Sequence record: MT682710.1
Length of the DNA stretch: 64,000 bases
Reading direction: 5' to 3' (one strand)
From: Escherichia phage vB_EcoM_FT
This document shows positions 2,940-62,832 of the stretch, one piece after another. A program made the position numbers and the translations under genes. How positions within the stretch are numbered: the stretch's first letter is position 1; each line of letters starts with the position of its first letter. The notes under the pieces were generated by a model that made no database searches, was not told the DNA's origin, and saw nothing but the letters and a program-made list of their open reading frames with translations.

Positions 2940-2967
2940 TTTCTGTTCCTCCGTAGTTGATAGGGTA

Positions 2968-2997
2968 ATAGTACCACGGAAGAACAGTCTTGTAAAC
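2968..2997 (-). promoter_or_regulatory. early sigma70-type promoter (GTTTAC-N18-TACTAT)
   Basis: read on minus strand; followed by conserved leader with GGAGG. Confidence 0.55.
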
Positions 2998-3182
2998 AAC
3001 TTTTTTAAAAATATTCGTAATAAATGTGAATACCAACTACTACCGCTGAAACCTGTGCAACCCACCACGCACAAGCAATAAGTACAGAATTCATAATTTT
3101 CATAATAACCTCATTACAAAAGTAAATGTTAAACAAATTACTGGAATACTAATTAACCAAACAAAACACCACCATAGTGAAC

Positions 3183-3446
3183 TCATAGCTCAATCTCAGC
3201 GATTTTCATTTCATTACTATTAATAGCCGCTTTAAGACTATCTGAAAGAATTACATTCCAATGGTCATTCATATGACCACTAACTAAGCGTGTAATTTCT
3301 TCGGGAGTTGAAAAATAAGGCGTATCAGACTCCCAATGCGATAATCCTAAGCGAGTATAAATCATACCTTCATCATCGCTAGAATATTCAACTGACACAA
3401 ACTCATCAGTTATTTTATGTTTAGCGTAATAAAATTTAAATTTCAT
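3183..3446 (-). CDS. hypothetical protein
   Basis: 87-aa ORF with GGAGG RBS and dedicated early promoter copy upstream. Confidence 0.55.
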   Translation of the reverse strand: MKFKFYYAKHKITDEFVSVEYSSDDEGMIYTRLGLSHWESDTPYFSTPEEITRLVSGHMNDHWNVILSDSLKAAINSNEMKIAEIEL

Positions 3447-3474
3447 TTTCCGCTCCTCCGTAGTTGATAGTTGT

Positions 3475-3504
3475 ATAGTACCACAGTATGCTTTGGTTGT
3501 AAAC
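3475..3504 (-). promoter_or_regulatory. early sigma70-type promoter (GTTTAC-N18-TACTAT)
   Basis: upstream A/T-rich UP-like tract ttttcacaaa; leader caactatcaactacggagga. Confidence 0.6.
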
Positions 3505-3520
3505 AGTTTTGTGAAAATTT

Positions 3521-4078
3521 TTAAATGGAAAGATACCAGCCGTTGTAATTGCTTTTTCTTACAACCTTACGAAGGTCTTCTCTATCACCGATGAACTTCG
3601 GAGTGTACTGGATGACACCTGGATGAATTTCTTTAGTGTTGAATATAATTATACAGTCAGCGACTTGATGATTTAGAATGGGCCCTAGATTTATTCCAGA
3701 ACCATATGGATACTCTCCGCTGCATCCCGTTGTTACCGAAATCCAACGCGAGTCAGTTTGATGTGTCTTAACTTCTACACGGAGCCCACAGTATTTTGGA
3801 TGTGCCAAAACATCCCATGCATATGTGTACGGATCATCGACATCTTCTTGACCTTTGTTAACATATCCACTCAACCAATCTGCTACCACATACTCGGCAT
3901 ACACAGCAATACGGCATCTTTCGATAACTTCTGCCTTATCCTGATTTGGGTTTTGTTTTAAAGAGTATCTTGCAGTATCAGCAATTTTGGCCTTCATTTC
4001 ACTAGTCAAGTCACTGTTAGATAGTGTAAATGACGGAATCTGAAATAGTCTCTGCAAACCCGGATTCGTTTTCTGCAT
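3521..4078 (-). CDS. denB: endonuclease IV (DenB)
   Basis: 185-aa ORF recognised as T4 DenB; conserved position next to rIIB. Confidence 0.85.
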   Translation of the reverse strand: MQKTNPGLQRLFQIPSFTLSNSDLTSEMKAKIADTARYSLKQNPNQDKAEVIERCRIAVYAEYVVADWLSGYVNKGQEDVDDPYTYAWDVLAHPKYCGLRVEVKTHQTDSRWISVTTGCSGEYPYGSGINLGPILNHQVADCIIIFNTKEIHPGVIQYTPKFIGDREDLRKVVRKSNYNGWYLSI

Positions 4079-4122
4079 TTAAACTTTCCTTTATGTCGGA
4101 ATCATAATTTCTCTTAAAACAA

Positions 4123-4138
4123 AAGGGCCGAAGCCCTT
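4123..4138 (-). terminator. GC stem-loop with UUCG-type tetraloop on transcript (intercistronic hairpin/terminator)
   Basis: aagggccgaagccctt; T-run follows on minus strand. Confidence 0.55.
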
Positions 4139-4141
4139 ATT

Positions 4142-4336
4142 TTATTTGAATTGTGCAATTCTTTTCTCTAGACATTCAGCATAAGATTTCATTGAGATGA
4201 ATTGTGAAAGCAGCAGTTCTTGCTCAACTGCACTAACCGTTAGAAACTTTGTGCTTTCTAAAAATTTGCTCAGTGCATTAATTTTGAGCATTAATTGATC
4301 GTATTCTTCTTTTACTCGTGCTTGATAACCTAACAT
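4142..4336 (-). CDS. hypothetical protein
   Basis: 64-aa ORF flanked on both sides by gggccgaagccc hairpins. Confidence 0.45.
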   Translation of the reverse strand: MLGYQARVKEEYDQLMLKINALSKFLESTKFLTVSAVEQELLLSQFISMKSYAECLEKRIAQFK

Positions 4337-4350
4337 AATTTTCCTTAGTT

Positions 4351-4366
4351 AAGGGCCGAAGCCCTT
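4351..4366 (-). terminator. GC stem-loop with UUCG-type tetraloop
   Basis: aagggccgaagccctt between rIIB and upstream ORF. Confidence 0.5.
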
Positions 4367-5303
4367 ATTTAAATTGCTCAGTAACGTCTTCAACTACTTC
4401 GTATTGGCAGGTACGCATTTTAGCATCGTTGTAATCAATCGGAATTGATACTACATCACGCGGATGTACTTTAACTTTTACAACTCGGCTAGTTGAACTA
4501 CCAAAGTGACGAATATAAGATTTAGAACACACATGCAGACCACGAGAACAAGTTTGTGTATCATCGTCATTCACACGAGTACGTGGCATTTTAACTACTT
4601 TACCAGGACTGTTATCAAAGGTGTTTGAGTGACAGTCAAAGTAATTGCTGCGAACTACTTTCCAAGCATAGAAGTAACCATCTTCTGTAATTTCAATATC
4701 GTTTGCTACCAAGAAATCAAAGAGTCGAGATACCGCTTTCTGGCTTGGGTTTTCCAGCAGATTTTCCAAGAACGGAAAATAAAATTCAAAGTTTTCGCCT
4801 TTTTCCATCGAGTCAAGAATACGATCAACCAAACCAGACCGCAATTCAATATTTTGATAGAATAAGCTTCCACCTTCAATTCGAACATCGCCGGAAATAT
4901 ATTTTTCAACAGCGCGACGAACATTAATTTTTTGTGCCGCTTCTTCTAACTTATCTGCTACGAGCAGATTAAGAATTTCCTGGAAGTTTGAATGTGTATT
5001 AGGAGTTGCGTTATAAGTTACACCGTCAACAGTAATTGAAATGAATTTTTTAGAAGCATTCCAAATAATGTCAGATTTAGCAACTGGAGCAATAATTGCA
5101 TCGCTATTAACTTTAACTGTAATATCACCGCTAATAGTAACTTTAGAGCGTTTAGCTTCTTCAGCATTTTTCAAAACACGACGGATTGTGTCAACCGATA
5201 CACCTTGCCAATCAGCCAATTCCTGTTGGGTGTAATTACCACTTGAATACAATTTAACAATTTCAGCTTGTTCGTTTTTGGTCAGGCATTTAATATTGTA
5301 CAT
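4365..5303 (-). CDS. rIIB: rIIB membrane-associated protein
   Basis: 312-aa ORF recognised as T4 rIIB, same length. Confidence 0.95.
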   Translation of the reverse strand: MYNIKCLTKNEQAEIVKLYSSGNYTQQELADWQGVSVDTIRRVLKNAEEAKRSKVTISGDITVKVNSDAIIAPVAKSDIIWNASKKFISITVDGVTYNATPNTHSNFQEILNLLVADKLEEAAQKINVRRAVEKYISGDVRIEGGSLFYQNIELRSGLVDRILDSMEKGENFEFYFPFLENLLENPSQKAVSRLFDFLVANDIEITEDGYFYAWKVVRSNYFDCHSNTFDNSPGKVVKMPRTRVNDDDTQTCSRGLHVCSKSYIRHFGSSTSRVVKVKVHPRDVVSIPIDYNDAKMRTCQYEVVEDVTEQFK

Positions 5304-5314
5304 AATTTTCCTTA

Positions 5315-7492
5315 TTAGGCCGCAAGGGCCTTCATAGTTTTAGCGATTTGGGAAACTTCATCATCACTTAAAGAGTTGCGATAACCGATGAAGTCGGAAA
5401 CAATACGGAATTTCTTGGTAAACTCAGCAACCATTTTATCACTGTTTTTTGAAGCATTATTTGATAATACATCAAAAAGATTAGTTACTGTCCAGATGTC
5501 ATGACCGATGGTATCTTTTCCACCATTAAAATATACACCGCGCAATGAACTAACTATATTAGCGAGTCGTGTATATTCTTCAGAAACTTCATCTGTACTG
5601 AAGTACTTCATCATAAAATCTAGTTCAGGATACTTGATAATTTTATCAATATATCGTTGAGCTGAACTTGAATAACCTACATACTTATCATAATCTACAT
5701 CATCAAAAGCATCTACATATAAATCACGCAAAGCTTCAAAAATACATTGGCACTGACCGAGCTCTTTTACCTTTTTCTGCAAAAGCGGACGAATAACATA
5801 AAATTCATTAATGCCAATAAGATTAGCCATACGAATCAAAATATTCATAGATGGATGACAAAGTGATGTAGTACCATCCATAGAGAAAATATCAGAACGA
5901 TGCATATACGCTACATAACCAGTAATTTCATCTGCTTCTGACGTAAGTGTAAATAGTTCCTCTTTTTCCCATCGCCCATCTTTAATTTCAAATTTAAATG
6001 CTGTAGCAGCTTTAGGACGAGGAGCTTTACTTTTAACTACCTTTGGAATATAGCTTTTAACCAAAGCTTCAATTTCTGACAAATAATGAATGTTAACTTC
6101 ATCACTTTCAAACATTGCCATAATATCAGGTAGTAAATCAATCTGCGATTCTACTTCCGGATTAATAAACAGAAGACGCTCATTGTGATGAATATTTAAA
6201 GTGTTATTAAATTCACTATCATCTAACGCATGTGCTAATCCACGGACAATATTAACACGATTTTTAATATTATCAATAACGATATTAATTTTTGCTGTAT
6301 TAATACCAAACAGACGATAACTTGATGCAACAGCTGAAGTTTCATGACTTTGCTTAATGCGTTTCAGTCGAGGGTCAAGATTTACTTCATACACAACCCC
6401 TGCATTGCATAACTTACTGTCAGGTTCAAACATGCTCTGCATCTTCTTATATGACAGATTTTTAGTCGTGAATTTGACTGAATTACTAATCATATAATCT
6501 CGAGCAGAATACCCCATCTTCATCAATTCACGATATGTGTGACGAGGAGACGTAGATTCTTTAAATCGTTTTACATCTTCATTAAATGCCTTTTCACTGA
6601 GTTCTTTAACACGCTCAATAATATTTTTACGAGTACGATCGTCTAATGAAAGAGCTTCGCGTGATGGAGCAATATCAAGCGAACCCATTGGAAATTTAAT
6701 GTAATTCACTTCATTGCGAATGCTTAACCAGTTACGGTCTCTAATAACACCATCGATAGGATAAACGATACCGCCGTAGATAGCATATAATCCACCACGA
6801 TCAGGCCAGTATCTTTCTGGATTTACACCGTAATAGTCATCAAAATCCGGAAAATAATCAATTTCGCGGTCAAGACCATTAATGATAGCCAAATCTTTGA
6901 ATGGTCGCATGATATAAGAAACTTCATAAGCAAAGTTTCTAAAGTCTTTTTCTTCAACTGGAACTACGATTTCAATACCAGTTTTATCATCTGGACCCAT
7001 TTCTTTTACGAATGTAGGTTTAATTTGTGGACCATCGCCATCCATGTAAGCTACATAACCACGAATTTCACCTTTATGGTATGAAGTAATACTAAACGTA
7101 TCAGTATAACTAAACGGAGATTTAGAACCTAAACCAAATCCACCAATGAAATCATTAGATTCAGCCTTAGATGAACTGAAGTATGAATTATACAGCCCAG
7201 GAGAATTATCATCACCCTGAATATCAAAATCGCTCATACCCGGACCAAAATCTCGGCAAACAAATCGCGGATCTAATCGTCCTGGAACTTGAATGATAAA
7301 TTTTTCAGGATTTCCATTGAGAGCATGGGCATCAATCATGTTGGTAATCAATTCACGGACTACTGCACGAATCTTGTTTGTATACAAATCAGATGACAGA
7401 ATTTTAAATACTTTAGGAGATGCTGTGATGCTAAATGCTTTTGATTTAGAACCATTACCAAGAATTGTTTCTTTTTCAGTGGTGATAATCAT
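5315..7492 (-). CDS. rIIA: rIIA membrane-associated protein
   Basis: 725-aa ORF recognised as T4 rIIA, same length. Confidence 0.95.
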
Positions 7493-7502
7493 AATTTCCT
7501 CA

Positions 7503-7706
7503 TTAATTTATATTACGCTTAATAACTTCAGCAACTTCTAGTAGTTCATCTTTAGTTGCGGTGTCGGATTGAATTTTATCTCTAATATCCTTAAAGCGGT
7601 TTTTAAATTCTTCGGCTTCTCCCATATCGAAAAAGCGTTGAATGATTCTATATTCTCGATGAACTGCTTTATCAAAAAGTTCTAAATTTACTTTATATGA
7701 TTTCAT
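7503..7706 (-). CDS. hypothetical protein (rIIA.1 position)
   Basis: 67-aa ORF immediately upstream of rIIA. Confidence 0.55.
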
Positions 7707-7731
7707 TCCAATATCCTCATTTGCCCAATTA

Positions 7732-7761
7732 ATTATACCACATCCTTGTGGTAAAGTAAAC
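7732..7761 (-). promoter_or_regulatory. early promoter upstream of rIIA.1/rIIA (GTTTAC-N18-TATAAT)
   Basis: -35 overlaps gene 39 stop codon. Confidence 0.55.
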
Positions 7762-9578
7762 TACTGGCTCATCCATTCTTTACGAAGGTCAGCATTATCT
7801 CCCATGAGCATTTCAAAAAGCTCTTTCCAGTTCTCAGGAAGTTTAACAACATCATATACTGGGTTTTGAATCATCTCACGATATTCAGATTTTTCCAAAG
7901 AGCCAAGTCCCTTAATATAACGGATGCTATGTTTAGGTAGAGCATCTTTAGCACTCTCATATTCAGCGACTGTATAAAACCATTCTTGTTTTTTACCGAC
8001 CTGAGCGATGATTACAGGAGTTTTGACAAAACGAATTCGTCCTTGCTCAAACAATTCTGGCCAATTACTAAAAAATCCGAGCAGAGAAGGATAAATGCTT
8101 CCTAGACCATCATGGTCAGCATCAGTCATAATAGCAATATTATGATAATTCAAGTTTTCAGCTTTTTCACCAAGAACTAATCCAGTGATTGCGCAAATAT
8201 CAAATAGTTCTTTGTTTTTAAGCATATCAGCATATGACATACCCCAACTGTTGAGAACTTTACCACGTAATGGATAACCACCATGAAGTTCTTTATCACG
8301 AACATCAATAAGATATCCGATAGCCGAATCACCCTCAGTCAAGAAAAGAGTAGTGTCAGCATCTTTACCACAAAGATTCGCTTTGATATGTTTATGAACC
8401 TTAGCTTTAGAAGCCTTTTTAGCTGCTTTAGTTTCTGCTGCTTTTTCTGCCGCCAATTTACGAGCTAATGCTGCTTCAATAATCGGCATTAAAATTGCTT
8501 CATTATTCAAAATAGCACGTGAAATCTTTTTAGCATCAAGTTGAATATGACTACGGATTTCACCAAATGGAGAAGTCAAACGCTCTTTAGTTTGAGAATC
8601 AAATCGCATGTTTTTCATATCACGAACAAACATAACGATAGTCAAACATTCTTTAACGCGTGCTTTAGTTACATCAATTTTGAACTTGCGTTTGATTTGT
8701 GGAATAAGGTCTTCACAAATATCATCCATAACACAGTCAATGTGATGGCCACCATTCTTAGTGTGAATGTTATTCACATAAGTTAATTGACGAAAACCGT
8801 CGGGTGAACGACCAACCGCAATAGAACAATTTTCTTGTTCTTGAACGATAGCATGTTCATCATACTGTCGTGCATATTTCTTAAAATTGCCCTGAACCTT
8901 TTTACCATTAAAGGTAAATTGAATATCAGGATAAACTACTGCAAGTGTCTGGAGACGATCTAGTGTAATGTCAAGATAAACTTGGGACAGTTCATTAGTT
9001 TCAAATGACATAAAATCAGGAATGAAAGTAACACGTGTTCCTTTCCATTTTCCAGGAATAGTTTCCCATGATTTATTTTCCATGCCATTTGAACAACGAA
9101 CTACAATATTATTTTGACCGTCGCCAGTTTCACCGACAAACATCACAGAAAAAATGTTTGTCAAACTAGAACCAACACCGTTCATACCGCCAGTGACGCG
9201 TTCTTTATCATCACCGAAGTTACCACCTGCTTTTGGAATAGTCCATGCAGCAACAGGACCAGGAATTTCTTCACCTGTAGGTGTTTTAACCATCGCCTGT
9301 GGAATACCACGACCGTTATCTTCAACTGTTACTTGATTGTTTTTAATAGTAACATTAATTTTATTTGCGAATTTAAACTTAGTACGAATACCTTCATCTA
9401 CTGAGTTATCGATAATTTCATCAATAAGCTTAACAAGACCAGGTACATACTGAACACTTTCCCATTTACCAAACAGAAAGCGCTCATGCATTTCATTAGC
9501 AGAAGAGCCAATATACATGCCGCTACGCTTTTTGATATGTTCAATATCGCTCAGAATTTTAATTTCATTCTTAATCAT
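7761..9578 (-). CDS. 39: DNA topoisomerase II large subunit, uninterrupted (covers T4 gp39 plus gp60)
   Basis: 605 codons from ATG at 9578; GyrB-like ATPase N-terminus MIKNEIKILSDIEHIKKRSGMYIGS; single continuous frame. Confidence 0.9.
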   Translation of the reverse strand: MIKNEIKILSDIEHIKKRSGMYIGSSANEMHERFLFGKWESVQYVPGLVKLIDEIIDNSVDEGIRTKFKFANKINVTIKNNQVTVEDNGRGIPQAMVKTPTGEEIPGPVAAWTIPKAGGNFGDDKERVTGGMNGVGSSLTNIFSVMFVGETGDGQNNIVVRCSNGMENKSWETIPGKWKGTRVTFIPDFMSFETNELSQVYLDITLDRLQTLAVVYPDIQFTFNGKKVQGNFKKYARQYDEHAIVQEQENCSIAVGRSPDGFRQLTYVNNIHTKNGGHHIDCVMDDICEDLIPQIKRKFKIDVTKARVKECLTIVMFVRDMKNMRFDSQTKERLTSPFGEIRSHIQLDAKKISRAILNNEAILMPIIEAALARKLAAEKAAETKAAKKASKAKVHKHIKANLCGKDADTTLFLTEGDSAIGYLIDVRDKELHGGYPLRGKVLNSWGMSYADMLKNKELFDICAITGLVLGEKAENLNYHNIAIMTDADHDGLGSIYPSLLGFFSNWPELFEQGRIRFVKTPVIIAQVGKKQEWFYTVAEYESAKDALPKHSIRYIKGLGSLEKSEYREMIQNPVYDVVKLPENWKELFEMLMGDNADLRKEWMSQ

Positions 9579-9600
9579 CACTTATCCTCGTTTGGTTTCG

Positions 9601-10285: not shown

Positions 10286-10287
10286 AA

Positions 10288-10464: not shown

Positions 10465-10466
10465 AA

Positions 10467-11095: not shown

Positions 11096-11266
11096 TACAA
11101 TTTCCTCATTAATTAAACATTGGAGCGATGCGTTTCAGAAGAGTATCAGCACCTTTAGCGAATTTCCATTTTATTCTCCAAGTTGTTTTCTGTATCAGTA
11201 GTTGATATTGATATAGTACCATAATCAACTACTGATGTATATAGTTTTATGAAAAAATTTTAAACT

Positions 11267-11755: not shown

Positions 11756-11831
11756 AGTTATCTCTCACTTGTTAAAAAGATTTTATACTCCACAGGACCA
11801 TTATACTCTGGTCCCAAGAGTTTGTAAACTA

Positions 11832-12374: not shown

Positions 12375-12376
12375 AA

Positions 12377-12904: not shown

Positions 12905-12934
12905 ATAATACCACAACTAACCGAGGAAGTAAAC
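12905..12934 (-). promoter_or_regulatory. early promoter (GTTTAC-N18-TATTAT)
   Basis: lies just downstream of dexA stop. Confidence 0.5.
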
Positions 12935-12940
12935 AACTTT

Positions 12941-16501: not shown

Positions 16502-16624
16502 ATTTTTCTCACATCTTACGGACGGTTAACTACTTATACTATAACATTTTTACCTTAACTTGTAAACAACTTTATGTAAAAATGCTTTAAAACTTTCATG
16601 GTATAATGAATCTAAGTCCTTCCA

Positions 16625-17873: not shown

Positions 17874-17903
17874 ATCATATCATCGTTAGAAAGGAAAGTA
17901 AAC
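17874..17903 (-). promoter_or_regulatory. early promoter upstream of modB (GTTTAC, weaker -10)
   Basis: GTTTAC with A-rich upstream tract. Confidence 0.4.
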
Positions 17904-19966: not shown

Positions 19967-19996
19967 ATTATACCATACTCATTTTGGAAAGTAAAC
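19967..19996 (-). promoter_or_regulatory. early promoter (GTTTAC-N18-TATAAT) paired with hairpin
   Basis: immediately downstream of soc terminator hairpin. Confidence 0.55.
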
Positions 19997-20010
19997 CATT
20001 TAAATGAAAA

Positions 20011-20030
20011 AGGACTCCCGAAGGAGTCCT
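20011..20030 (-). terminator. GC stem-loop with UUCG-type tetraloop downstream of soc
   Basis: aggactcccgaaggagtcct. Confidence 0.55.
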
Positions 20031-20035
20031 TGAAT

Positions 20036-21276: not shown

Positions 21277-22616
<1,340 letters not shown>

Positions 22617-22641: not shown

Positions 22642-22671
22642 ATAATACCATAACAAGCTGAGAAAGTAAAC
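22642..22671 (-). promoter_or_regulatory. early promoter driving the 186-aa ORF and dam
   Basis: GTTTAC-N18-TATTAT on minus strand followed by GAGG RBS. Confidence 0.55.
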
Positions 22672-25020: not shown

Positions 25021-25081
25021 GATTAATCTCCTCAGTAGTTTATGTTTATATAGTATCTCAATTTCCAATAAAAGTAAACAG

Positions 25082-25523: not shown

Positions 25524-25552
25524 AACAATCTCCTCATTTAACCAACAAGACT

Positions 25553-25582
25553 ACTATACCATAGTCTTGTCAGCTTGTAAAC
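25553..25582 (-). promoter_or_regulatory. early promoter upstream of dmd (GTTTAC-N18-TATAGT)
   Basis: -35 abuts gene 41 stop. Confidence 0.5.
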
Positions 25583-30997: not shown

Positions 30998-31234
30998 TCA
31001 AATGCAAGTAGTAATTACTCCAGTAGTGCTTATGCAGGTATTACCCATTTGCACACCTAAAGATCCATTTGTATTCACATGAAGATTATCATCAATTTTT
31101 GTTGATATTTTACCATTAGTGTGAATAACGGTGCTAGATTCAATCACAGGTTGAGTATCATTTTCAACACTAACAAATGGAACTGCTGCTAATGCAACTA
31201 AACAAACTGCTAAGCATCCCATAACAATTTTCAT
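30998..31234 (-). CDS. small secreted protein
   Basis: ATG at 31234 (MKIVMGCLAV) with GGAG RBS and early promoter upstream; N-terminal signal-like segment. Confidence 0.5.
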   Translation of the reverse strand: MKIVMGCLAVCLVALAAVPFVSVENDTQPVIESSTVIHTNGKISTKIDDNLHVNTNGSLGVQMGNTCISTTGVITTCI

Positions 31235-31269
31235 TTTATTCTCCAAATCCGTATTAGTTGATAGTTGTA

Positions 31270-31299
31270 TAGTACCATGGAAGAACAGTCTTGTAAACA
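31270..31299 (-). promoter_or_regulatory. early promoter (GTTTAC-N18-TACTAT), repeat-family copy
   Basis: shares about 50-bp core with copies at 3451, 55961, 58141. Confidence 0.55.
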
Positions 31300-31385
31300 G
31301 TTTTGTGAAAATTTTTTAGGGAATTCTAAAGGTCCAGAATCATCTGTTTTTCATAAGTATAGATTTATATTACTTGTATGAAAAA

Positions 31386-31401
31386 GGGACCCGGAGGTCC
31401 C
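31386..31401 (-). terminator. GC stem-loop downstream of gene 43
   Basis: gggacccggaggtccc. Confidence 0.5.
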
Positions 31402-31414
31402 TAGATTTATTCTA

Positions 31415-39873: not shown

Positions 39874-40889
39874 TGTGTTGCCTCTACATATAGCTGATTT
39901 GCATATTGAATAAGTGCTTCACGGTCAGAATCAGTGATGTCTGGAATTGCATTAATATACTCTTCCATCAACGTCTGAAGAGATTGAACTTCAACTTCTT
40001 CACTGTCATCTGACTCGACAGAGTTATCAATTTTTGACACAACTCGTAATGAATGCACAACTTTTTCTAGTTCAGATTCGAACTTCGTCAGATTTTTGTC
40101 TACCTCAGTTACTATAACACGTACTGATAGATTTGTAAAATCTTTATAGTCAATTTTTCCTTTAAATGGATAATGAATTCTACGATGCCAGGTAGTATTG
40201 TTTGGAATAAATTCCATTCGTTCTGTTTCTGTATCAAACATCCAGAACCCACGAGGGTCATTCTCGTCACCTGCAGTTAGTGTCCATGGTGTCCCAATAT
40301 ATCTGACGTTTGCAGCCTCAGAGATAGTATGGAAGTGACCAGACCACACCTCTTTATAAGTCTTAAGGAAATCAGGTTCAAGACCGTGAGATTTCATTCC
40401 TTTATAAAAATAAAATCCATTCAGTTCCCAGTGACCAACACAAAAAGAAGCAGATGAAGTTTTGATGTGCTCAAGAATTTCACCAGTATTTTCTTCGCAC
40501 ATCCAAGGAATTAAATCAATCAAACATCCGTCAAAATCTACTGTAGTAGGCTTATCATATACTTTAACATTAGGATATTTAGCCAAAAGCTCAGTAGAGG
40601 CATTTGGATGCATTACATTTTTGTAGTGAAGATCGTGATTTCCTACAATAGTATGTAATGTGATTCCAGCACCATCAAGCATTTGAACTATTTCACGGGC
40701 AAACTCCATAGTTTTATGCGTGATTGCTTTTCGCACATCAAAAATATCACCGTATTGAATCCAGGTAGTAATTCCATTTTTCTTAGAATATTCTATTGCT
40801 TGTTTAATTCCATCAATTTGAATACCGCGAATCCACTCATCATCAGCTTTAACGCCTAAATGCCAATCACCTAAATTTAAAATTTTCAT
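39870..40889 (-). CDS. 47: recombination endonuclease subunit gp47 (Mre11/SbcD-like)
   Basis: 339-aa ORF; phosphoesterase motifs DWH, GNHD. Confidence 0.95.
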   Translation of the reverse strand: MKILNLGDWHLGVKADDEWIRGIQIDGIKQAIEYSKKNGITTWIQYGDIFDVRKAITHKTMEFAREIVQMLDGAGITLHTIVGNHDLHYKNVMHPNASTELLAKYPNVKVYDKPTTVDFDGCLIDLIPWMCEENTGEILEHIKTSSASFCVGHWELNGFYFYKGMKSHGLEPDFLKTYKEVWSGHFHTISEAANVRYIGTPWTLTAGDENDPRGFWMFDTETERMEFIPNNTTWHRRIHYPFKGKIDYKDFTNLSVRVIVTEVDKNLTKFESELEKVVHSLRVVSKIDNSVESDDSEEVEVQSLQTLMEEYINAIPDITDSDREALIQYANQLYVEATQ

Positions 40890-44903: not shown

Positions 44904-45119
44904 TTAAATTTCCCAATTACCATTTTCATCAATAAATTTAATCCAGTCATTTACTGACCACTTAGTTGTATCACCTTTTGGAGTAACATTTAAAGTATAT
45001 AGCCCTTGCTTAAAAAGCATTCGTTTGATATTCATAATTTCCTCAGCTGTAACGATAACACTCGTTTGATTTACGTTTAGCAACTCGTTGAGAAGTATTA
45101 TAATCAAAATCATCGTCAA
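44904..45119 (-). CDS. hypothetical protein
   Basis: 71-aa ORF. Confidence 0.45.
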   Translation of the reverse strand: MTMILIIILLNELLNVNQTSVIVTAEEIMNIKRMLFKQGLYTLNVTPKGDTTKWSVNDWIKFIDENGNWEI

Positions 45120-45381
45120 TGTAAACTGATTTTTTCAACTTTCTTACTTCACCACGCAGTTGACGATTCAATTCATTCTTAACCTCTGAATCAACACCTC
45201 GCATACGTCGCCATTTATCTGAACGAAAAATGTTTTCAACCATATCTTTATGACTTACACCATCAGGAGCTTTACGCTTTCCGAAATAGTCATAATCACG
45301 TACTTTTAAATCTTTACGACGATACGTTTTACCCATGGAGTTTAATTTCCTTAGCAACTGAACTAAATACAGCACGGTCAC
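45043..45381 (-). CDS. hypothetical basic protein
   Basis: 112-aa track ORF; true start may be internal (MGKTYRRKD). Confidence 0.4.
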   Translation of the reverse strand: MTVLYLVQLLRKLNSMGKTYRRKDLKVRDYDYFGKRKAPDGVSHKDMVENIFRSDKWRRMRGVDSEVKNELNRQLRGEVRKLKKSVYIDDDFDYNTSQRVAKRKSNECYRYS

Positions 45382-45541: not shown

Positions 45542-45571
45542 ATAATACCACAGTTTGAACTTGTTGTAAAC
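45542..45571 (-). promoter_or_regulatory. early promoter (GTTTAC-N18-TATTAT) paired with hairpin
   Basis: downstream of nrdH-proximal hairpin 45653..45665. Confidence 0.5.
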
Positions 45572-45669
45572 AACTTTGTGAAAAATATTTTAGGGAATGA
45601 CAAGAAGGGAACGATAGCTTAGAATGGTAATATACAGAATGTAAGAAAGAAAGGCCCAGAGGGCCCATC

Positions 45670-49609: not shown

Positions 49610-49713
49610 TTAAGTCATTTATCGTTGGTTCATTATATACTGTTTCTTCATCAGTGTAAACCGGTTCTTCCGGCTCTGGCTCTACAGTTTCCCATCTAGC
49701 CGCCCACCAAGGT

Positions 49714-53006: not shown

Positions 53007-53036
53007 ATTATACCACATCCTTGTGGCAAAGTAAAC
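53007..53036 (-). promoter_or_regulatory. early promoter (GTTTAC-N18-TATAAT)
   Basis: near-identical to promoter at 7732..7761 (ccacatccttgtgg spacer). Confidence 0.55.
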
Positions 53037-55431: not shown

Positions 55432-55959
55432 TTATGCGAGTACCGTCTTTAACCGTTCTTCAAACTTCCGAAGAGTATTTTGGCGTTCAGCTCTTTGCTT
55501 TTTGTAAGTTTCAATACGCTCTGAAATGAGAGTGTATCGTTCATTTACTGATTCTTTCATAAAATCAGGAATTTCACGAGAAGCTTTAATCTCGTCAAAT
55601 TTATCAATAACAGCTTGCTCTTCAGCAATTAAGTTATCATACATTAAAATATCTTTCTTGATGAACTCAATATCTTCTTGAGTTACACGAGATAATTTAG
55701 ATGCTTTATCCTTTTTGTACTGTTCGTTAGTATCACGAGACCAGTGCAATGTACGATTTTTATTCGTATTCTTGTAAATTTCTACAATACCAATCTCATC
55801 GATAATAACGATCCAATTCCAACGAGATTTGTAAATTTGTCCTCCGTCAACCGTGATTTCACCTCCGATTGAGATGTCATTAAAGAACTTGCTTTGTGCT
55901 TCTGATTTAAATTTACCATCGTTGTAATTTACCAGGTTGAAAATATCTTTAGCGTTCAT
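55432..55959 (-). CDS. hypothetical protein with C-terminal coiled coil
   Basis: 175-aa ORF behind promoter/leader cassette 55961..56017. Confidence 0.55.
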   Translation of the reverse strand: MNAKDIFNLVNYNDGKFKSEAQSKFFNDISIGGEITVDGGQIYKSRWNWIVIIDEIGIVEIYKNTNKNRTLHWSRDTNEQYKKDKASKLSRVTQEDIEFIKKDILMYDNLIAEEQAVIDKFDEIKASREIPDFMKESVNERYTLISERIETYKKQRAERQNTLRKFEERLKTVLA

Positions 55960-55987: not shown

Positions 55988-56017
55988 ATAGTACCACAAA
56001 GGAACAGTCTTGTAAAC
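55988..56017 (-). promoter_or_regulatory. early promoter (GTTTAC-N18-TACTAT), repeat-family copy
   Basis: with conserved leader ending in GGAGGAAC. Confidence 0.55.
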
Positions 56018-56424: not shown

Positions 56425-57393
56425 TTATTTCAGAAGAGTAACCTCAGCGATTTCTTGCCAACCATTTTTGTCGGTCATAATAAAGTCAGCAAGATAAAGT
56501 GCAGTACGCAGTGAAACATTGCGTAAACGGTTAACATTGACTTTCATCCATGATAATGCTTTATAAGTTTCTTCATCAGAAAGACCGCGCTTTTGCATCA
56601 TGTCGGTTGAAAGAATAACATCTTCAACCCTGACCATAATTTCTTCATTAGTGTGAACACCCAAATCTAAATAAACTGAGCGGGACACTAATGCTTGTAA
56701 ATGTGGAGCAAGTTTAGTACCACGGTCTAATTCGCGGTCAATGTCAACGTTTGTGATAAAAACAATCGTTCCTTTAAATTCAAACTCACGCTCAATGCCT
56801 TTTTCTTCTAAGTAAGAAGATGCAGTGCTCCAGCAGACTTTACGGGTCTCTCCGGTGTCCAGAGCGGCTTTTAGAAGATTAAGAATGTCCATATCAGAGA
56901 AAACATCCACATCATCAATCAAAAGGACAGAATTCTCTTCACGATTATTCCAGAGCTGTTCATAAAGACCAATACCAGAGATTTTACCGTTAATGCTTTT
57001 ATATTCAATGTATCCATTATCATTTGCTTTATTCAAAGCTTTATCTAAAGAATACGTTTTACCAATACCCGCCGCACCAGAGATAATTAATGAACGAATG
57101 TTTCCGTTAATAATACCATTCGTCATCATTCCCATAACATTAAATCTTTTATTAATGCGGGTTTTCATATCTTCATATGATTCTTTAACTTCTTCAACTT
57201 TTACACCATCATATGAAATGTCTGATTTGTAAACCCAAACACCGCGACGTTTACCGTCAATTTCAACAAAAACTTTACCATCTCCTTGTGCATCTACCGG
57301 AGCATTATCTGGGAACCATTCACCTAAGAGCTCAAAAGTTCCAGAGATTTCTTTACCGAAGTAGATACCCTTATTGATAGTTACAGTTTTCAT
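56425..57393 (-). CDS. AAA+/P-loop ATPase
   Basis: 322-aa ORF; Walker A GAAGIGKT, Walker B LLIDDVD; about 100-aa N-terminal extra domain. Confidence 0.7.
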   Translation of the reverse strand: MKTVTINKGIYFGKEISGTFELLGEWFPDNAPVDAQGDGKVFVEIDGKRRGVWVYKSDISYDGVKVEEVKESYEDMKTRINKRFNVMGMMTNGIINGNIRSLIISGAAGIGKTYSLDKALNKANDNGYIEYKSINGKISGIGLYEQLWNNREENSVLLIDDVDVFSDMDILNLLKAALDTGETRKVCWSTASSYLEEKGIEREFEFKGTIVFITNVDIDRELDRGTKLAPHLQALVSRSVYLDLGVHTNEEIMVRVEDVILSTDMMQKRGLSDEETYKALSWMKVNVNRLRNVSLRTALYLADFIMTDKNGWQEIAEVTLLK

Positions 57394-57450
57394 TTTATTC
57401 TCCTTTGATTTGATAGGACTACTATAACATAATCCTATCAGTTTGTATAC

Positions 57451-57651
57451 TTATTTTGACATTTCTTCGATGTCACGACGATACCCGTCACGAACTTCAC
57501 GAAGAGCTTCAAGGCCACACATAGGCTCGATACCAGTAATGTGAACTTGATTAATCTGATACTCTACATCTTCTAACTGAGCGAAAACATAACGACGTTC
57601 AGCTGCACAACCAGATTTAGCTTTACCGAAACGTTTATTCAAAGTAGTCAT
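57451..57651 (-). CDS. hypothetical protein
   Basis: 66-aa ORF behind promoter 57690..57719. Confidence 0.45.
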   Translation of the reverse strand: MTTLNKRFGKAKSGCAAERRYVFAQLEDVEYQINQVHITGIEPMCGLEALREVRDGYRRDIEEMSK

Positions 57652-57689
57652 TTTGTATCTCCAATTTACTCATTTGTTTTGATAGGTCT

Positions 57690-57719
57690 ATAGTATCAAC
57701 AACTACAGACCATGTAAAC
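57690..57719 (-). promoter_or_regulatory. early promoter (GTTTAC-N18-TACTAT)
   Basis: upstream of 57451..57651. Confidence 0.5.
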
Positions 57720-57722
57720 AAT

Positions 57723-57986
57723 TTATTTTAATTTTCGCCAAATTTTTACTGCTTCTCGCCTCGATACTTCTACGGCGCCAAGTTCTATAGCTTTTTGACG
57801 ACGACTTGCACGTAAGTCATAATGTTTAATGCGTTTATCTTGAAACCAAGAACGTTTCATTCCTATTGCTTCTGCCATTTCGTGAAGCTCTTCAATATCT
57901 CCATCAGTGAACATATGACAATTTTTAGTTGGATGACCGCGAAGTTTCCATCCATGATTCATTAAAACATCTACGTAAACTGTCAT
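57723..57986 (-). CDS. hypothetical protein
   Basis: 87-aa ORF; preceded by an untracked 49-aa ORF (about 57983..58132) with overlapping stop/start. Confidence 0.5.
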   Translation of the reverse strand: MTVYVDVLMNHGWKLRGHPTKNCHMFTDGDIEELHEMAEAIGMKRSWFQDKRIKHYDLRASRRQKAIELGAVEVSRREAVKIWRKLK

Positions 57987-58168
57987 TGATTCTTCTCCAA
58001 ATAAGTTTCGATAATTTTCTGGGCGAGATAAACCGCGTTATCTTCAGTTGCGTCTTCTAAGAAACTTTCAAAACACTCTGAAATTTCTTCTGTATCAATC
58101 AACTTTTTTACTTCAATTGGTGTAATTTTCATTTTGTTTTCCGTTTAAGTGTTTGTTTTGATAGTTGT

Positions 58169-58198
58169 ATAGTACCATAAAGCTTTATGCTTGTAAAC
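58169..58198 (-). promoter_or_regulatory. early promoter, downstream copy of the direct repeat flanking the ART-like ORF
   Basis: GTTTAC-N18-TACTAT; preceded by hairpin and repeat gtaaacaactttgtgaaaaatttttgaaataaaaa. Confidence 0.55.
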
Positions 58199-58254
58199 AA
58201 CTTTGTGAAAAATTTTTGAAATAAAAAGGGGACCTCTAGGGCCCCTTTATGCTT

Positions 58255-58755
58255 TTATTCCATTTCTATTATATGCATGCTCTTTTTGCTATCAAAATAT
58301 ATGTTTTTAACTGTTAACTCCGAATTAATTGGCAATAAAAACTCTCTTTCATAATCCACCATAGAAAGATTATCATAAAGCTTATTAAGCTTATCATCAT
58401 CAATCTGGCCAGATTCTTCAATTGCGATTAAATTTTCTAAAATTTCAATCATAGCAGTTGAATAGTCAAAAACGTTTGCATTTTTTAACACTATTAAAAC
58501 ATTAGTCATATAGCGTTCTGCTGCAAATGTTTCAGCTATATGGGATTCACTACTAAAGGAAGTTATTCTTTTAAATTTGATTCTCCTATTAACTTCAAAC
58601 TTATGAGATAGTACTTCCTCTATTGTAAGTCCTCTAAAAAGTACGTCTTTAATCTCAAGTTTGTCTTTAATGTAATCATTAACACGCTTATGATTAAAAT
58701 CATTAATTTTGTTGCCAAGGCATTTCATTAAAATATGCATTGTGTTTCTCTTCAA
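58255..58755 (-). CDS. putative mono-ADP-ribosyltransferase (ModA/ModB-like R-S-ExE signature)
   Basis: 166-aa ORF; LFRG (R41), SFS (66-68), EREFLLP (136-142), spacing nearly identical to ModA in this window; flanked by promoter-hairpin direct repeats. Confidence 0.5.
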   Translation of the reverse strand: MKRNTMHILMKCLGNKINDFNHKRVNDYIKDKLEIKDVLFRGLTIEEVLSHKFEVNRRIKFKRITSFSSESHIAETFAAERYMTNVLIVLKNANVFDYSTAMIEILENLIAIEESGQIDDDKLNKLYDNLSMVDYEREFLLPINSELTVKNIYFDSKKSMHIIEME

Positions 58756-58789
58756 TTTTTAAAGAACGATTAATTAACTACAAATATAT

Positions 58790-58818
58790 TATAATATGCT
58801 TTATGATAGAAGTAAACA
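58790..58818 (-). promoter_or_regulatory. early promoter, upstream copy of the direct repeat flanking the ART-like ORF
   Basis: GTTTAC present, -10 less clear; same about 35-bp repeat as at 58191..58225. Confidence 0.45.
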
Positions 58819-58848
58819 ACTTTGTGAAAAATTTTTGAAATAAAAAAA

Positions 58849-58864
58849 GGAGCCCGAAGGCTCC
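58849..58864 (-). terminator. GC stem-loop with UUCG-type tetraloop downstream of NTase gene
   Basis: ggagcccgaaggctcc then T-run on minus strand. Confidence 0.55.
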
Positions 58865-58867
58865 CTA

Positions 58868-59881: not shown

Positions 59882-60339
59882 TCAGCCTTATATTCAATAA
59901 CTGGACATACTTTAGCTTTACGAGCTTTTAAAAATTCGACGATAATCGATTTCTTGGGTTGAATAGGAGGTAAACCTTTATACGCCCTATCAATATTTTC
60001 TGCGTGTAAAGCATAATCCTTTTTCCATTTATAATCTTTATATTTTTCACGCAAATGTGCAGGAATAACAAATGAACCAATAATAAGTAAAACAACCAAA
60101 AGCGCAAGTATAAATGCTGATGGAATAAGAGTCCATAAACTACCAAAAATAAGCCATTTCTGTATGATTTCTGCACAGATGATAGTTAGACCTACGAGTA
60201 TAGTACATCCGAAAAAAGAAACGAAAAATGTAGGAATGGCAATAGACCAAAAATATGCGCATAGTGTCTTAGGTCGTTTCCATTCATCATTAAACATTTT
60301 GAATAATTTATAGTGCCAAGAGTTTTCATTAATAATCAT
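59878..60339 (-). CDS. membrane protein (2-3 TM helices) coupled to the nucleotidyltransferase gene
   Basis: 153-aa hydrophobic ORF; 4-nt overlap with downstream NTase ORF. Confidence 0.55.
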   Translation of the reverse strand: MIINENSWHYKLFKMFNDEWKRPKTLCAYFWSIAIPTFFVSFFGCTILVGLTIICAEIIQKWLIFGSLWTLIPSAFILALLVVLLIIGSFVIPAHLREKYKDYKWKKDYALHAENIDRAYKGLPPIQPKKSIIVEFLKARKAKVCPVIEYKAE

Positions 60340-60341
60340 AA

Positions 60342-60863
60342 TTATCCTTTCATTGAAGGCGTAACAGTTGTTAAATACTTAATCATAGCTTCAGCTTCTG
60401 ATTTTGATAATGAAATTTCTCCATTGTTTTGACGAATAGAAATAAAATCCGGATGACGGTCACCACCAGCTTTTAAAACACACATATAAGTATCAGTTTC
60501 ATCTTCAATATTTGAAATGATTGAAGCAGTTCCACACGAATGTGGTTTTTGATAAATCAATACAGCTTTTCTTCCACCATTTGACTGTTCATAAACTTTT
60601 AATACATCAAACAAATCACTTCTTTTATCAATAGCTAAGATGTTGTTTTCATCTTCAATGTTAAATCCTTCGGATACTTCATAAAGTGTCACCCATAAAT
60701 CACCTATATCGATAGTAGCATTTTCCTTTCCATGACTTTCAAGAGCATGACAAATTTTCTTGATTTCGTCATAACTCATTTTAATAATATCATCTCCTTG
60801 AATAAGGAAGATGTCATTTTTAAATTCAACACGAATTAAACCACTTCCACTTGAAATAAACAT
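60342..60863 (-). CDS. hypothetical protein, tandem paralog 1
   Basis: 173-aa ORF; C-terminus ISLSKSEAEAMIKYLTTVTPSM parallels the next ORF. Confidence 0.55.
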   Translation of the reverse strand: MFISSGSGLIRVEFKNDIFLIQGDDIIKMSYDEIKKICHALESHGKENATIDIGDLWVTLYEVSEGFNIEDENNILAIDKRSDLFDVLKVYEQSNGGRKAVLIYQKPHSCGTASIISNIEDETDTYMCVLKAGGDRHPDFISIRQNNGEISLSKSEAEAMIKYLTTVTPSMKG

Positions 60864-60869
60864 ATTTCC

Positions 60870-61424
60870 TCACTTTGAAATCATAGTTGGAATGACAGAA
60901 TCAAGATAAGTCTTTAGCGCAATAGCTTCGTCTTTGGTAAATGTGACAATATGTGATCGAAAATCGTCAATTTGGCGAATAGTTAAGACATCTCCCTCTT
61001 CATAACATTTTGATACATTTAAAAGAGTTTCATCATTCTGATTGCAAGCGCTAGTAATAATAGCATTGCAATTTTTGAGCCATTTTAAACTATGTTTTCT
61101 TTCATTAGAATAATAAAAATATTTAATCTTAGCTATAAAACTATCCCAATGGATAACTGATAAACACATTGACTCACTTTGAATATTAAATCCTGGGCAT
61201 GAAGAATAAAAATGAATTTTGTGCTCATCATTGATGCTTACTATTTTATCAGTATAAGGATATTCAATTTGGGTTAAATGAATAATTTCACTAGGTGTAA
61301 AATATAGCATATCGTCTTCTTGCGTCAAACGATACATATTATTTACTTTTTCTATAGCCAATTCACCAAAAAGTGGACTAACTTCTAATACTAATCGTTT
61401 CATATTAATCCTTTTTATTGGCAC
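60870..61424 (-). CDS. hypothetical protein, tandem paralog 2
   Basis: 184-aa ORF; C-terminus VTFTKDEAIALKTYLDSVIPTM. Confidence 0.55.
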   Translation of the reverse strand: MPIKRINMKRLVLEVSPLFGELAIEKVNNMYRLTQEDDMLYFTPSEIIHLTQIEYPYTDKIVSINDEHKIHFYSSCPGFNIQSESMCLSVIHWDSFIAKIKYFYYSNERKHSLKWLKNCNAIITSACNQNDETLLNVSKCYEEGDVLTIRQIDDFRSHIVTFTKDEAIALKTYLDSVIPTMISK

Positions 61425-61683
61425 GAATTTGTTCTAAAATTTTAGAATATTCCTTTGTATCAGATTTACGTACAATTGATACACTATAAGGCATACTATC
61501 GGTGTCTTTTATAAAGCGTTCCAAATGACACTCTAACAAAATTTCTGGATTATAAATCGTGTACATCAAATTACCTGTTGCTCCACGATATTGGCAGATT
61601 TCTACTGATTGAACACCATTCCATAATTTTGTTAAAACTAAATCACCTACTTCTAATTTAGGAAAGCCCATGTTATTCACCAA
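61405..61683 (-). CDS. hypothetical protein
   Basis: 92-aa ORF. Confidence 0.5.
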   Translation of the reverse strand: MVNNMGFPKLEVGDLVLTKLWNGVQSVEICQYRGATGNLMYTIYNPEILLECHLERFIKDTDSMPYSVSIVRKSDTKEYSKILEQIRANKKD

Positions 61684-61858
61684 TTAAAGTTTCAATATAA
61701 GAATCAAGATTTACTTTAGCTTCTTCCATAAGAGTTTTGTATTTAATCTTGTTAGCATGTCCGGAGAAAGCTGATTCATCAATAATTGTTGATGTATGAA
61801 CAGCTTTACTATACGTCTCAATTAATTCTCTTAATTTAAAAGCCTGCTCACTTGTCAT
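61673..61858 (-). CDS. hypothetical protein
   Basis: 61-aa ORF. Confidence 0.45.
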   Translation of the reverse strand: MTSEQAFKLRELIETYSKAVHTSTIIDESAFSGHANKIKYKTLMEEAKVNLDSYIETLIGE

Positions 61859-61990
61859 TACATACTCCTTTGAATAATATCAATAATGTTGTTCACCAGA
61901 TTATAAGTAAACATTGGGTAATTATATTGAATCATCACATACACAACAAACAAAACTTTCATTCTCTTCTCCTTGGCAGTTGACAAGATT

Positions 61991-62020
61991 ACTATACCAT
62001 AACCTTGCCAACTTGTAAAC
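61991..62020 (-). promoter_or_regulatory. early promoter (GTTTAC-N18-TATAGT)
   Basis: followed by AAGGAG and a 34-codon mini-ORF. Confidence 0.5.
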
Positions 62021-62185
62021 CATTAAATGACGTTTTCAATAAAATTCTGAAGCTTTGTGTGAGCATCAACCATGATTTTCATTTCTTCTTTGGCGAAAGC
62101 TGTACCTCTTTCCCGAGCAGAATACTCATAGTCAGAAACTGCGTTAGCATATTCTTCAATTAGTTTCATTAAAAACATCTGCTTT

Positions 62186-62380
62186 TCAGTTTTCATTATT
62201 CCACCTAATCATTTCAAGATATTGAACTAACTTAGCTTTGGATTTATCCAAATCCTTTTTAGCTGCTTCTATACCGTCGTATGAATATCCTTCACAATGC
62301 TCAACTGCTAATTGATATGAATCTATTTCAATATCACGTGCTAATTTAATGATTTTTTCAAACTGTTCGCGTGTTAGCAT
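62186..62380 (-). CDS. hypothetical protein
   Basis: 64-aa ORF. Confidence 0.45.
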   Translation of the reverse strand: MLTREQFEKIIKLARDIEIDSYQLAVEHCEGYSYDGIEAAKKDLDKSKAKLVQYLEMIRWNNEN

Positions 62381-62382
62381 AC

Positions 62383-62622
62383 TTAAACTCTCGTATTATG
62401 ATCGATAATTTCATCAAGAAACATATCTAACGCTTCTACAGCATTATTAACTTTATCTTCAAGTTCTTCAATACTTTTATTTGCAATTCCTGACGAAAAC
62501 CAAGCAAAGTCACTAAGTTCCTCATCTGCTTTACGAATTAAAGCTACCAATTCCTTAATTTTATCCGCTTGTTCGATACTAATCATTATTCTACCACATA
62601 TGAAAGAGAGAATATTGCACAC
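62383..62622 (-). CDS. hypothetical protein
   Basis: 79-aa ORF. Confidence 0.45.
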
Positions 62623-62774
62623 GCCATGTGAGTTGCAACTTCATCACACATATTATAACGTTTCTTAAGAAGTTCTACAAGTTCTTCACTAGTAACTTCA
62701 TCCATGTCGACGAAAAAATCACCATTAATGATGACGTAGATATTTCCTTCTTGATTAAGTGCTTCAATTTTCAT
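62586..62774 (-). CDS. hypothetical protein (62 aa)
   Basis: ATG at 62774 with AGAGGAG RBS; longer track ORF would start inside promoter 62803..62832. Confidence 0.45.
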
Positions 62775-62802
62775 GATGTTCTCCTCTTTATCTGATAGTT
62801 GT

Positions 62803-62832
62803 ATAGTATCACAGCTCAAATGGAAAGTAAAC
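62803..62832 (-). promoter_or_regulatory. early promoter (GTTTAC-N18-TACTAT) paired with hairpin
   Basis: downstream of hairpin 62848..62865. Confidence 0.55.

Follow-up and report, generated by a model that had tools for sequence, protein, structure and literature searches.

Probable T4-type early promoters and promoter–stem-loop cassettes in Escherichia phage vB_EcoM_FT

The stretch of DNA analysed here (the window, 64,000 nucleotides of Escherichia phage vB_EcoM_FT, sequence record MT682710.1) has a GC content of 34% and a GC skew that is negative throughout, and practically all of its genes lie on the minus strand. Its first and last 20 kb are 96–98% identical to many genomes of Tequatrovirus, the T4-like coliphages, and it is colinear with T4 over an interval that begins at gene 52, takes in rIIB/rIIA, gene 43 and nrdD, and ends in the rI/tk region. 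The early promoters of T4 are reportedly covered by Wilkens & Rueger 1996 and Miller et al. 2003. Hinton 2010 (PMC2988021) is a review of them. Dispersed through the window is a repeated promoter-and-leader element, of which a preliminary description had listed eight copies, several joined to a GC stem-loop, and which it had interpreted as cassettes where accessory genes are exchanged. We consider it very likely that these repeats are the early promoters (Pe) of a T4-like phage, a subset of them being promoter and stem-loop composites (PeSLs), and that they act as patches of homology for the shuffling of cassette genes. This idea is the PeSL concept of Arbiol et al. 2010 and Comeau et al. 2014 and is hence already known.

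The promoter family and its T4 counterparts

All eight copies listed previously are present on the minus strand, with the G of the −35 element at positions 2997, 3504, 31298, 56017, 58198, 45571, 58817 and 62832 (copies are named below by this position). The pattern GTTTAC-N15–19-TANNNT occurs 25 times in the window compared with 4.25±2.4 times in dinucleotide-preserving shuffles, none of 100 of which reaches 25. With the spacing fixed (GTTTAC-N18-TAnnnT) there are 22 matches, every one of them on the minus strand. A position weight matrix (PWM) built from these 22 exact sites finds 25 sites on the minus strand but nothing on the plus strand or in 20 Markov-chain nulls; the three additions (11242, 40140 and 57450) each depart from the pattern by one mismatch. 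This makes the family about three times the size of the original list. A scan of positions 1–20000 with a generic sigma70 consensus was uninformative, yielding 83 matches compared with 86.7 in shuffles, and hence signal stands out from noise with the T4-specific pattern alone. The 18-bp spacer following GTTTAC, as first described, holds as a pattern, and it is the same as the canonical 17-bp spacer when counted from TTTACx.

The anatomy of the copies comprises an A/T-rich UP element, the −35 element GTTTAC, the 17-bp spacer, an extended −10 element (TGn, found in 17 of the 22 exact sites, with TAnnnT) and a conserved start region, cTATCAA, and the leader often closes with a GGAG(G) Shine–Dalgarno (SD) sequence. 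The information-content profile shows the A/T tract upstream of the promoter; it is absent or weak in copies 45126, 49661, 7761 and 53036. The leader caactatcaactacggagga is common to copies 2997, 3504 and 56017 and is partly present in 31298, 58198 and 62832. All 25 sites are oriented with the coding strand, and the genes downstream of them include motB, srd, modB, mrh.2, sp and dmd.

The published consensus of the T4 early promoters places GTTTAC at −36 to −31 and an A-rich stretch at −40 to −44, within an array of UP, −35, TGn and −10 elements (PMC1524935; PMC2988021). The homologous DNA of T4 contains 21 exact matches to the pattern, on one strand and at orthologous positions, often with an identical spacer. 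Promoters are not annotated in the T4 records NC_000866 and AF158101, and orthology was shown through the sequence and published map units. Two T4 transcripts have been mapped by primer extension, Pe40.4 with its start at 41,225 and Pe35.3 with its start at 35,662 (PMC6024815). In this comparison, which covers these two T4 sites, the published starts are exactly the seventh nucleotide after the −10 elements of T4 sites 41261 and 35698, the orthologs of window sites 45126 and 40140. The view of the repeats as promoter-plus-leader units is therefore borne out: they are orthologs of T4 early promoters, two of which have published start sites. Consensus, orientation and map position are the same as in T4. 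What sets this phage apart, with no other substantive difference, is a handful of additional copies (22671, 57450, 57719, 58817 and, as it now stands, 3504), each before a gene missing from T4, together with swaps of some promoter cores.

T4 early promoters are exceptionally strong and seize the host sigma70 RNA polymerase at once on infection, and some are stimulated by Alt ADP-ribosylation (PMC1524935; PMC2988021). If the T4 literature is a guide, unmodified host sigma70 RNA polymerase would fire the promoters of this phage within seconds of infection. The SD region contains GGAG in 11 of 19 promoter-proximal genes compared with 7 of 100 others (p=1.4e-6). In T4, early messages are inactivated by the RegB endoribonuclease, which acts on GGAG within their ribosome-binding sites (PMC3014915), and the same motif in this phage may thus double as ribosome site and RegB target, giving expression that is ‘fast on, fast off’. 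Examples of GGAG SD sequences lie at 2945–2955, 3452–3462, 31238–31248 and 57397–57407, and several fit the strong RegB consensus GGAGRAYARAA (for example, ggagaataaaa). By inference from its parts, the cassette would be a complete early expression unit consisting of an optional terminator, a promoter, a start region and a strong, RegB-cleavable ribosome site.

Stem-loops upstream of and within the promoters

The six GC stem-loops that had been described as joined to promoter copies are all present (the six PeSLs in Table 1). Each follows the stop codon of the upstream gene and is itself followed by a T-run, and they sit 14–87 nt upstream of a −35 element. By this anatomy of a GC stem and T-run after a stop codon they are predicted terminators. 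Among terminator-like hairpins on the minus strand, 6 of 14 lie within 110 nt upstream of a promoter compared with 0.62 expected from random placement, none of 2,000 simulations reaching 6, and the coupling of hairpin and promoter is therefore non-random. The hairpin sequences vary from copy to copy. A composite of terminator hairpin and promoter would insulate one small transcription unit from the next.

Such composites were described by Arbiol et al. 2010 in phages RB49 and phi1, with promoter and terminator activity for examples and with excised mini-circles joined inside PeSL elements (PMC2839356), and by Comeau et al. 2014 in the T4/PST pair, with the consensus TTTACW-N17-TAYWAT and the ndd region as an example (PMC4122927). 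In the window the same composite of promoter and stem-loop likewise occurs at some insertions, deletions (indels) and replacements of small open reading frames (ORFs), with junctions inside the elements. It differs from the published cases in that stems spanning the −10 element or lying in the spacer occur here in a T-even-type genome also, and in a combinatorial array of three cassettes at the nrdC.11/nrdC.10 junction.

These embedded stems constitute a second class of hairpin, which was absent from the preliminary description. Besides the six GC stems upstream of promoters, the inventory comprises four to five stems over the −10 element and two in the spacer, with no notable stem at the other 12 or so promoters. 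The stems over the −10 element are 12–15 bp long and have no T-run. Those over a TATAGT −10 box have a fixed register. In an alignment of eight sequences from four paralog groups, 96.7% of the cells of the TATAGT-class stems are paired compared with 21–63% in slid controls, and 5 of 15 pairs have changed on both sides in a compensatory manner. These covariation counts are only suggestive, given a small sample of related sequences. The TATAGT-class stems are rich in G.U pairs, and each lies 8–12 nt upstream of a GGAG ribosome site. The G.U pairs suggest that it is the sense strand that folds, as RNA or possibly as the non-template DNA strand.

A stem over the −10 element cannot form in transcripts of its own promoter and can only do so in read-through from promoters upstream. 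We raise, as a speculation that is unlikely to be correct, that the stems over some −10 boxes (25541–25574, 61979–62012, 57411–57440 and their relatives) are selected RNA elements: a RegB cut would leave the upstream message ending in a hairpin and shielded from 3′ exonucleases, while the downstream gene would be silenced. If so, the stems would be a built-in device that uncouples the fates of neighbouring cassettes. Arbiol et al. 2010 reported −10 and spacer stems in RB49 and phi1 (PMC2839356), and Comeau et al. 2014 placed the PST stem-loops just upstream of the promoter (PMC4122927); the −10-stem class and its role in a T-even-type genome do not seem to have been described.

Gene gain and loss at the cassettes

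The copies had been called near-identical, which is too strong, since whole-cassette identities are 61–87% (about 60–90% overall). Nonetheless, they are alike beyond a generic promoter consensus, as had been claimed. Pairs that are at least 70% identical number 3 in the UP element, 7 in the spacer and 6 in the leader compared with 0.01, 0.34 and 0.02 expected from column shuffles that keep the consensus. The likeness is a mosaic, in which copies pair with different partners in their UP, spacer and leader segments. Copy 3504, for example, has the UP tract of 31298, the spacer of 45571 and the leader of 56017. One spacer is common to copies 2997, 31298 and 56017, and the 35 nt upstream of the −35 element are 91% alike in 58198 and 58817. 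There are at least three unrelated spacer families, with 78–94% identity within each.

Promoter cores have also been swapped between loci. The spacer of Pe 3504, which lies between the denB and ndd genes, matches that of the T4 motA promoter (T4 163673) at 18 of 18 positions, whereas the orthologous T4 promoter (T4 167086) has another spacer; the swapped loci are about 3.4 kb apart.

Five window-specific insertions relative to T4 abut a promoter copy (3216–3440, 22144–22674, 30988–31220, 57404–58125 and 58246–58797). The clearest case is the nrdC.11/nrdC.10 junction, a combinatorial hot-spot that contains three cassettes (A, B and C) in this phage, none in T4 and Lutter, C in Ozark, B in DalCa, A in T2, and A and B in ACG-C40. 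Only eight records match at least 80% of the A+B+C arrangement of the window. In Ozark, the sequence switches from the 58817 type to the 57719 type within the six bases GTTTAC, while the DalCa and Lutter junctions fall in a 49–53 nt terminator/UP repeat common to 58198 and 58817. A 14-nt SD–ATG repeat (microhomology) bounds cassette C. In T4 and Lutter the single element is a chimera, built from the two that lie on either side of cassette A in this phage, and the chimeric single PeSLs of T4, Lutter, Ozark and DalCa have halves that match the two PeSLs bordering a cassette in the window. The overlaps between the homologous flanking segments at these junctions are 6–64 nt.

A second example is the cassette between gp43 and imm.1, where T4 has no cargo, this phage has an ORF of 78 amino acids, and T2 and Ozark have an unrelated ORF of 83 amino acids; cargo is thus not identical at equivalent cassettes of relatives. 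The 83-amino-acid ORF comes with another leader variant, which is identical to the leader of window copy 56017. The T4 junction at this locus is a 14-nt ATG-proximal repeat. The T4 and T2 junctions of this cassette, at 30988–31228, lie inside the element, and further junctions inside an element occur at 22675 and 22696. Hence, indel junctions lie inside cassettes among the relatives, as had been proposed.

Cassette C extends beyond the genus. Together with both flanking promoter segments (57388–57724) it is at least 98% identical within Tequatrovirus and 94–95% identical in 63 further (Mosigvirus-tier) records, including Mosigvirus TU01 and APCEc01, where it is flanked by proteins unrelated to nrdC.9, nrdC.10 and nrdC.11. 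Orthologous genes of Tequatrovirus and Mosigvirus are mostly 80–90% identical, compared with the 94–95% of cassette C, whose ORF encodes 66 amino acids.

Five ORFs had been named as likely recent cargo. Three are variable among about 500–520 genus-level records: ORF 3183..3446 is in 368 records (367 at ≥90% identity) and is not in T4, ORF 30998..31234 is in 320 records (257 at ≥90% identity), and ORF 58255..58755 is in 43 phage records, T2 among them, or about 8% of related genomes. The other two are essentially universal in the genus, ORF 55432..55959 being the nrdC.8 homolog (672 records, 501 at ≥95% identity) and ORF 62586..62774 the mobD.5 homolog (500 records). Because these two homologs are universal, a promoter copy alone does not mark recent cargo, and the proposal that it does fails more widely, in that most of the 25 copies lie before early genes that are conserved (motB, modB, srd, dmd and sp, for example). 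Pfam gave no match for five of the cargo ORFs.

The protein encoded by cassette A (58255–58755, minus strand) is a distant paralog of ModA and ModB (27–28% identity, E values of 5e-13 and 1e-11). It matches PHROG 832 at 3.7e-24, with the R, S-x-S and E-x-E motifs aligned, and is a candidate for a third Mod-like ADP-ribosyltransferase, as predicted from its sequence. The variable ORF 22056..22616 (minus strand, 186 amino acids) lies beside dam, is absent from T4 and has been lost together with dam in DalCa and Ozark. It has a weak, sub-threshold Pfam likeness to type II restriction enzymes (DpnII 0.0045, BanI 0.0093). Compared with windows of the same size, the GC content is low in cassette A (28.1%, 2nd percentile) and in ORF 22056..22616 (27.6%, 1st percentile) and typical in the other four of six cargos.

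We propose that about 25 units in the same orientation, each of 50–100 bp and 60–90% alike, offer patches of homology to the very active recombination machinery of the phage. Crossovers between units, or at the short SD–ATG repeats at their ends, would delete, insert or swap genes without breaking their expression. We infer the pathway and direction of recombination, as well as promoter and terminator activity in this phage and cleavage by RegB.

The association of cassettes and breakpoints was assessed by comparing the window with six relatives, among which there are 44 distinct indel or replacement events. Excluding homing-endonuclease differences, 18 of 49 breakpoints lie in cassettes, which make up 5.5% of the DNA (p=5e-11). 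A fairer null takes gene junctions, of which 20% bear a cassette, as the only places where indels survive, and against this null the enrichment is less pronounced (18 of 49, p=0.005). Sixteen of the 29 events other than homing-endonuclease or nrdD-intron differences have at least one end in a cassette.

Several results weigh against a shuffling role for the cassettes. The remaining 13 of the 29 events have neither end in a cassette, and the 15 homing-endonuclease or nrdD-intron differences do not touch a promoter copy in any case. With the hot-spot at 57.4–58.9 kb removed, 10 of 41 breakpoints lie in cassettes compared with 20% (p=0.30), and the enrichment therefore hinges on one hot-spot. The six relatives are kin to each other, so the events are not fully independent. 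The likenesses among paralogous copies, such as the common spacer of 2997, 31298 and 56017, occur in T4 too, which makes them old; selection on promoter strength, and not ongoing exchange, could be what maintains them. Lastly, promoter and terminator activity in this phage are predictions from orthology and anatomy. The claim that the cassettes are recombination points is thus upheld in the junctions and chimeras inside cassettes and in the swapped cargo, but not in the 13 of 29 indels without a cassette or in an enrichment that is lost without the hot-spot.

These same results would be expected if the repeats were promoters and nothing else, with the shared sequence kept by selection for promoter and ribosome-site strength and with nearby gene gain and loss incidental, as small accessory genes merely require a promoter and indels are tolerated at gene boundaries alone. 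The conservation of paralog likenesses between this phage and T4, the lack of enrichment over the gene-junction null outside the hot-spot and the position of most copies before conserved genes all agree with this explanation, as does the presence in T4 early promoters of extra consensus regions outside the canonical elements, according to a review (PMC2988021). It would leave unexplained, however, the chimeric PeSLs of relatives with halves of the two flanking copies, the promoter core swapped between loci (3504 and the T4 motA promoter) and the bounding of cassette C by promoters in two genera. Moreover, the spacers fall into at least three families unrelated to each other, which points to common descent or conversion and away from one functional optimum. 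We consider the promoter-only explanation rather unlikely.

A further alternative is that the accessory genes came from outside by illegitimate recombination, each with its own promoter and terminator, as do the morons of lambdoid phages, which are likewise small accessory genes with such signals between conserved genes, and that the resident promoters were uninvolved in the insertion. The low GC content of cassette A and ORF 22056..22616, each of which has its own promoter, would be consistent with such an origin, as would the terminators on either side of cassette A. However, most of the cargos are typical in GC content, the flanking promoters belong to the resident repeat family and are not foreign, and the junctions coincide with homologous segments of the flanking copies, all of which makes this origin quite improbable.

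A site-specific system in which a dedicated recombinase recognises the hairpin or promoter and moves the cassettes is the least credible alternative, and we give it very little weight, since, although the array at 57.4–58.9 kb resembles an integron array in being a tandem series of single-gene cassettes in one orientation and in varying combinations, and the conserved stem-loop was raised as a possible protein target by Arbiol et al. 2010 (PMC2839356), a hairpin is missing from many of the junctions at promoters, the copies have hairpins of differing sequence, each cassette has its own promoter and no recombinase gene was seen beside the array, although none was looked for. A fixed crossover site of the attC type was rejected, as the point of crossover varies with the event (GTTTAC, the UP/terminator repeat, the leader or the SD–ATG repeat).

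Shuffling through early promoters and PeSLs thus remains the reading that we prefer, and the preliminary description was largely right in its interpretation, its overreach being confined to ‘near-identical’ copies and to promoters as cargo markers. Working from raw sequence, it correctly recovered two things that are textbook matter for T4-type phages, namely their very strong, stereotyped early promoters and the published idea of promoter and terminator cassettes through which small accessory genes are shuffled. The cassettes may actively promote exchange or may merely sit where exchange is tolerated. The practical value lies in annotation, with the 25 sites marking out the early transcription units of this phage. 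The nrdC.11/nrdC.10 junction, which carries among other genes the predicted third Mod-like ADP-ribosyltransferase paralog, clearly illustrates a cassette hot-spot.

Promoter sites and other features of the window

The 25 promoter sites are listed in Table 1 with their stem-loops, downstream genes and counterparts in T4 and other relatives.

Table 1. Early promoters (Pe) and promoter–stem-loop composites (PeSLs) in the window; terminators are predicted.
Feature	Coordinates	Strand	Downstream gene and remarks
Pe	2968..2997	minus	ndd.4 homolog; T4 ortholog 166807; spacer as 31298/56017, leader as 3504/56017
Pe	3475..3504	minus	Variable ORF 3183..3446 (not in T4); spacer 18/18 identical to T4 motA promoter
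Pe, stem-loop in spacer (7736–7753)	7732..7761	minus	rIIA.1 homolog; T4 ortholog 2458; spacer 94% identical to 53036
Variant Pe (−35 ATATAC)	11213..11242	minus	Before small ORF and cef; 206-nt insertion in leader in T2/Ozark
Pe, stem over −10 (11793–11816)	11800..11829	minus	motB; left end of T2 deletion in UP element
Pe	12905..12934	minus	motB.2 homolog; T4 comparison
Pe	16538..16567	minus	srd; T4 comparison
Pe	17874..17903	minus	modB and modA; T4 comparison
PeSL: terminator 20010–20031 and Pe (−35 G 19996)	19967..20031	minus	mrh.2; dG −15.1, z −5.0; 88% identical over 42 nt to 62821–62862
Pe	22642..22671	minus	Variable ORF 22056..22616; T4 deletion ends 4 nt, DalCa/Ozark deletion 25 nt upstream of −35
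Pe	25050..25079	minus	sp; additional ORF inserted in UP region in Ozark
Pe, 14–15 bp stem over −10 (25541–25574, class B1)	25541..25582	minus	dmd
PeSL: gp43 terminator 31385–31402 and Pe (−35 G 31298)	31269..31402	minus	Variable ORF 30998..31234
Variant Pe (TTTTAC)	40111..40140	minus	Ortholog of T4 Pe35.3; published start 35,662 (PMC6024815)
Intragenic Pe	45097..45126	minus	Ortholog of T4 Pe40.4; published start 41,225 (PMC6024815)
PeSL: terminator 45652–45666 and Pe (−35 G 45571)	45542..45666	minus	55.6 homolog
Uncertain Pe, intragenic, without A/T-rich UP	49632..49661	minus	Lowest PWM score among exact sites (18.7); kept in T4 at 47452
Pe, spacer stem-loop (53011–53028)	53007..53036	minus	nrdC.4 homolog
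Pe	55988..56017	minus	nrdC.8 homolog (conserved, not cargo)
Variant Pe (GTATAC), class B1 stem over −10 (57411–57440)	57411..57450	minus	nrdC.10; downstream boundary of cassette C
Pe, stem over −10 (57685–57711)	57685..57719	minus	Cassette C (ORF 57451..57651); Ozark crossover exactly in its GTTTAC
PeSL: terminator 58229–58245 and Pe (−35 G 58198)	58169..58245	minus	Cassette B (ORFs 57983..58132, 57723..57986)
PeSL: nrdC.11 terminator 58847–58866 and Pe (−35 G 58817)	58788..58866	minus	Cassette A (ORF 58255..58755)
Pe, class B1 stem over −10 (61979–62012)	61979..62020	minus	mobD.2 region
PeSL: terminator 62848–62865 and Pe (−35 G 62832)	62803..62865	minus	mobD.5 homolog (conserved)

Several mobile elements of T4 are missing from the window, including segF, segA, mobB, mobC, mobD and the nrdD intron. 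The large subunit of the topoisomerase is unsplit in this phage, with no gp60/mobA insertion and no bypass, and a T2-type glucosyltransferase gene occupies the place of the T4 b-gt gene. The sites of these differences in T4 mobile elements and b-gt are 7761–9581, 20320–20734, 28526–29471, 42260–42283, 46759–46779, 48056–48057 and 59883–60844.

A search of Rfam found no family at the gathering threshold anywhere in the window. A second dispersed repeat consists of near-identical hairpins whose minus-strand sequence is GGGC-TTCG-GCCC, with T-rich sequence after most of them, at 4123–4138, 4351–4366, ∼9630–9645, 34171–34186, ∼36341–36356, 41051–41066 and 44689–44704. These hairpins show no coupling to the early promoters, and the indel boundary at 34193 adjoins one of them.

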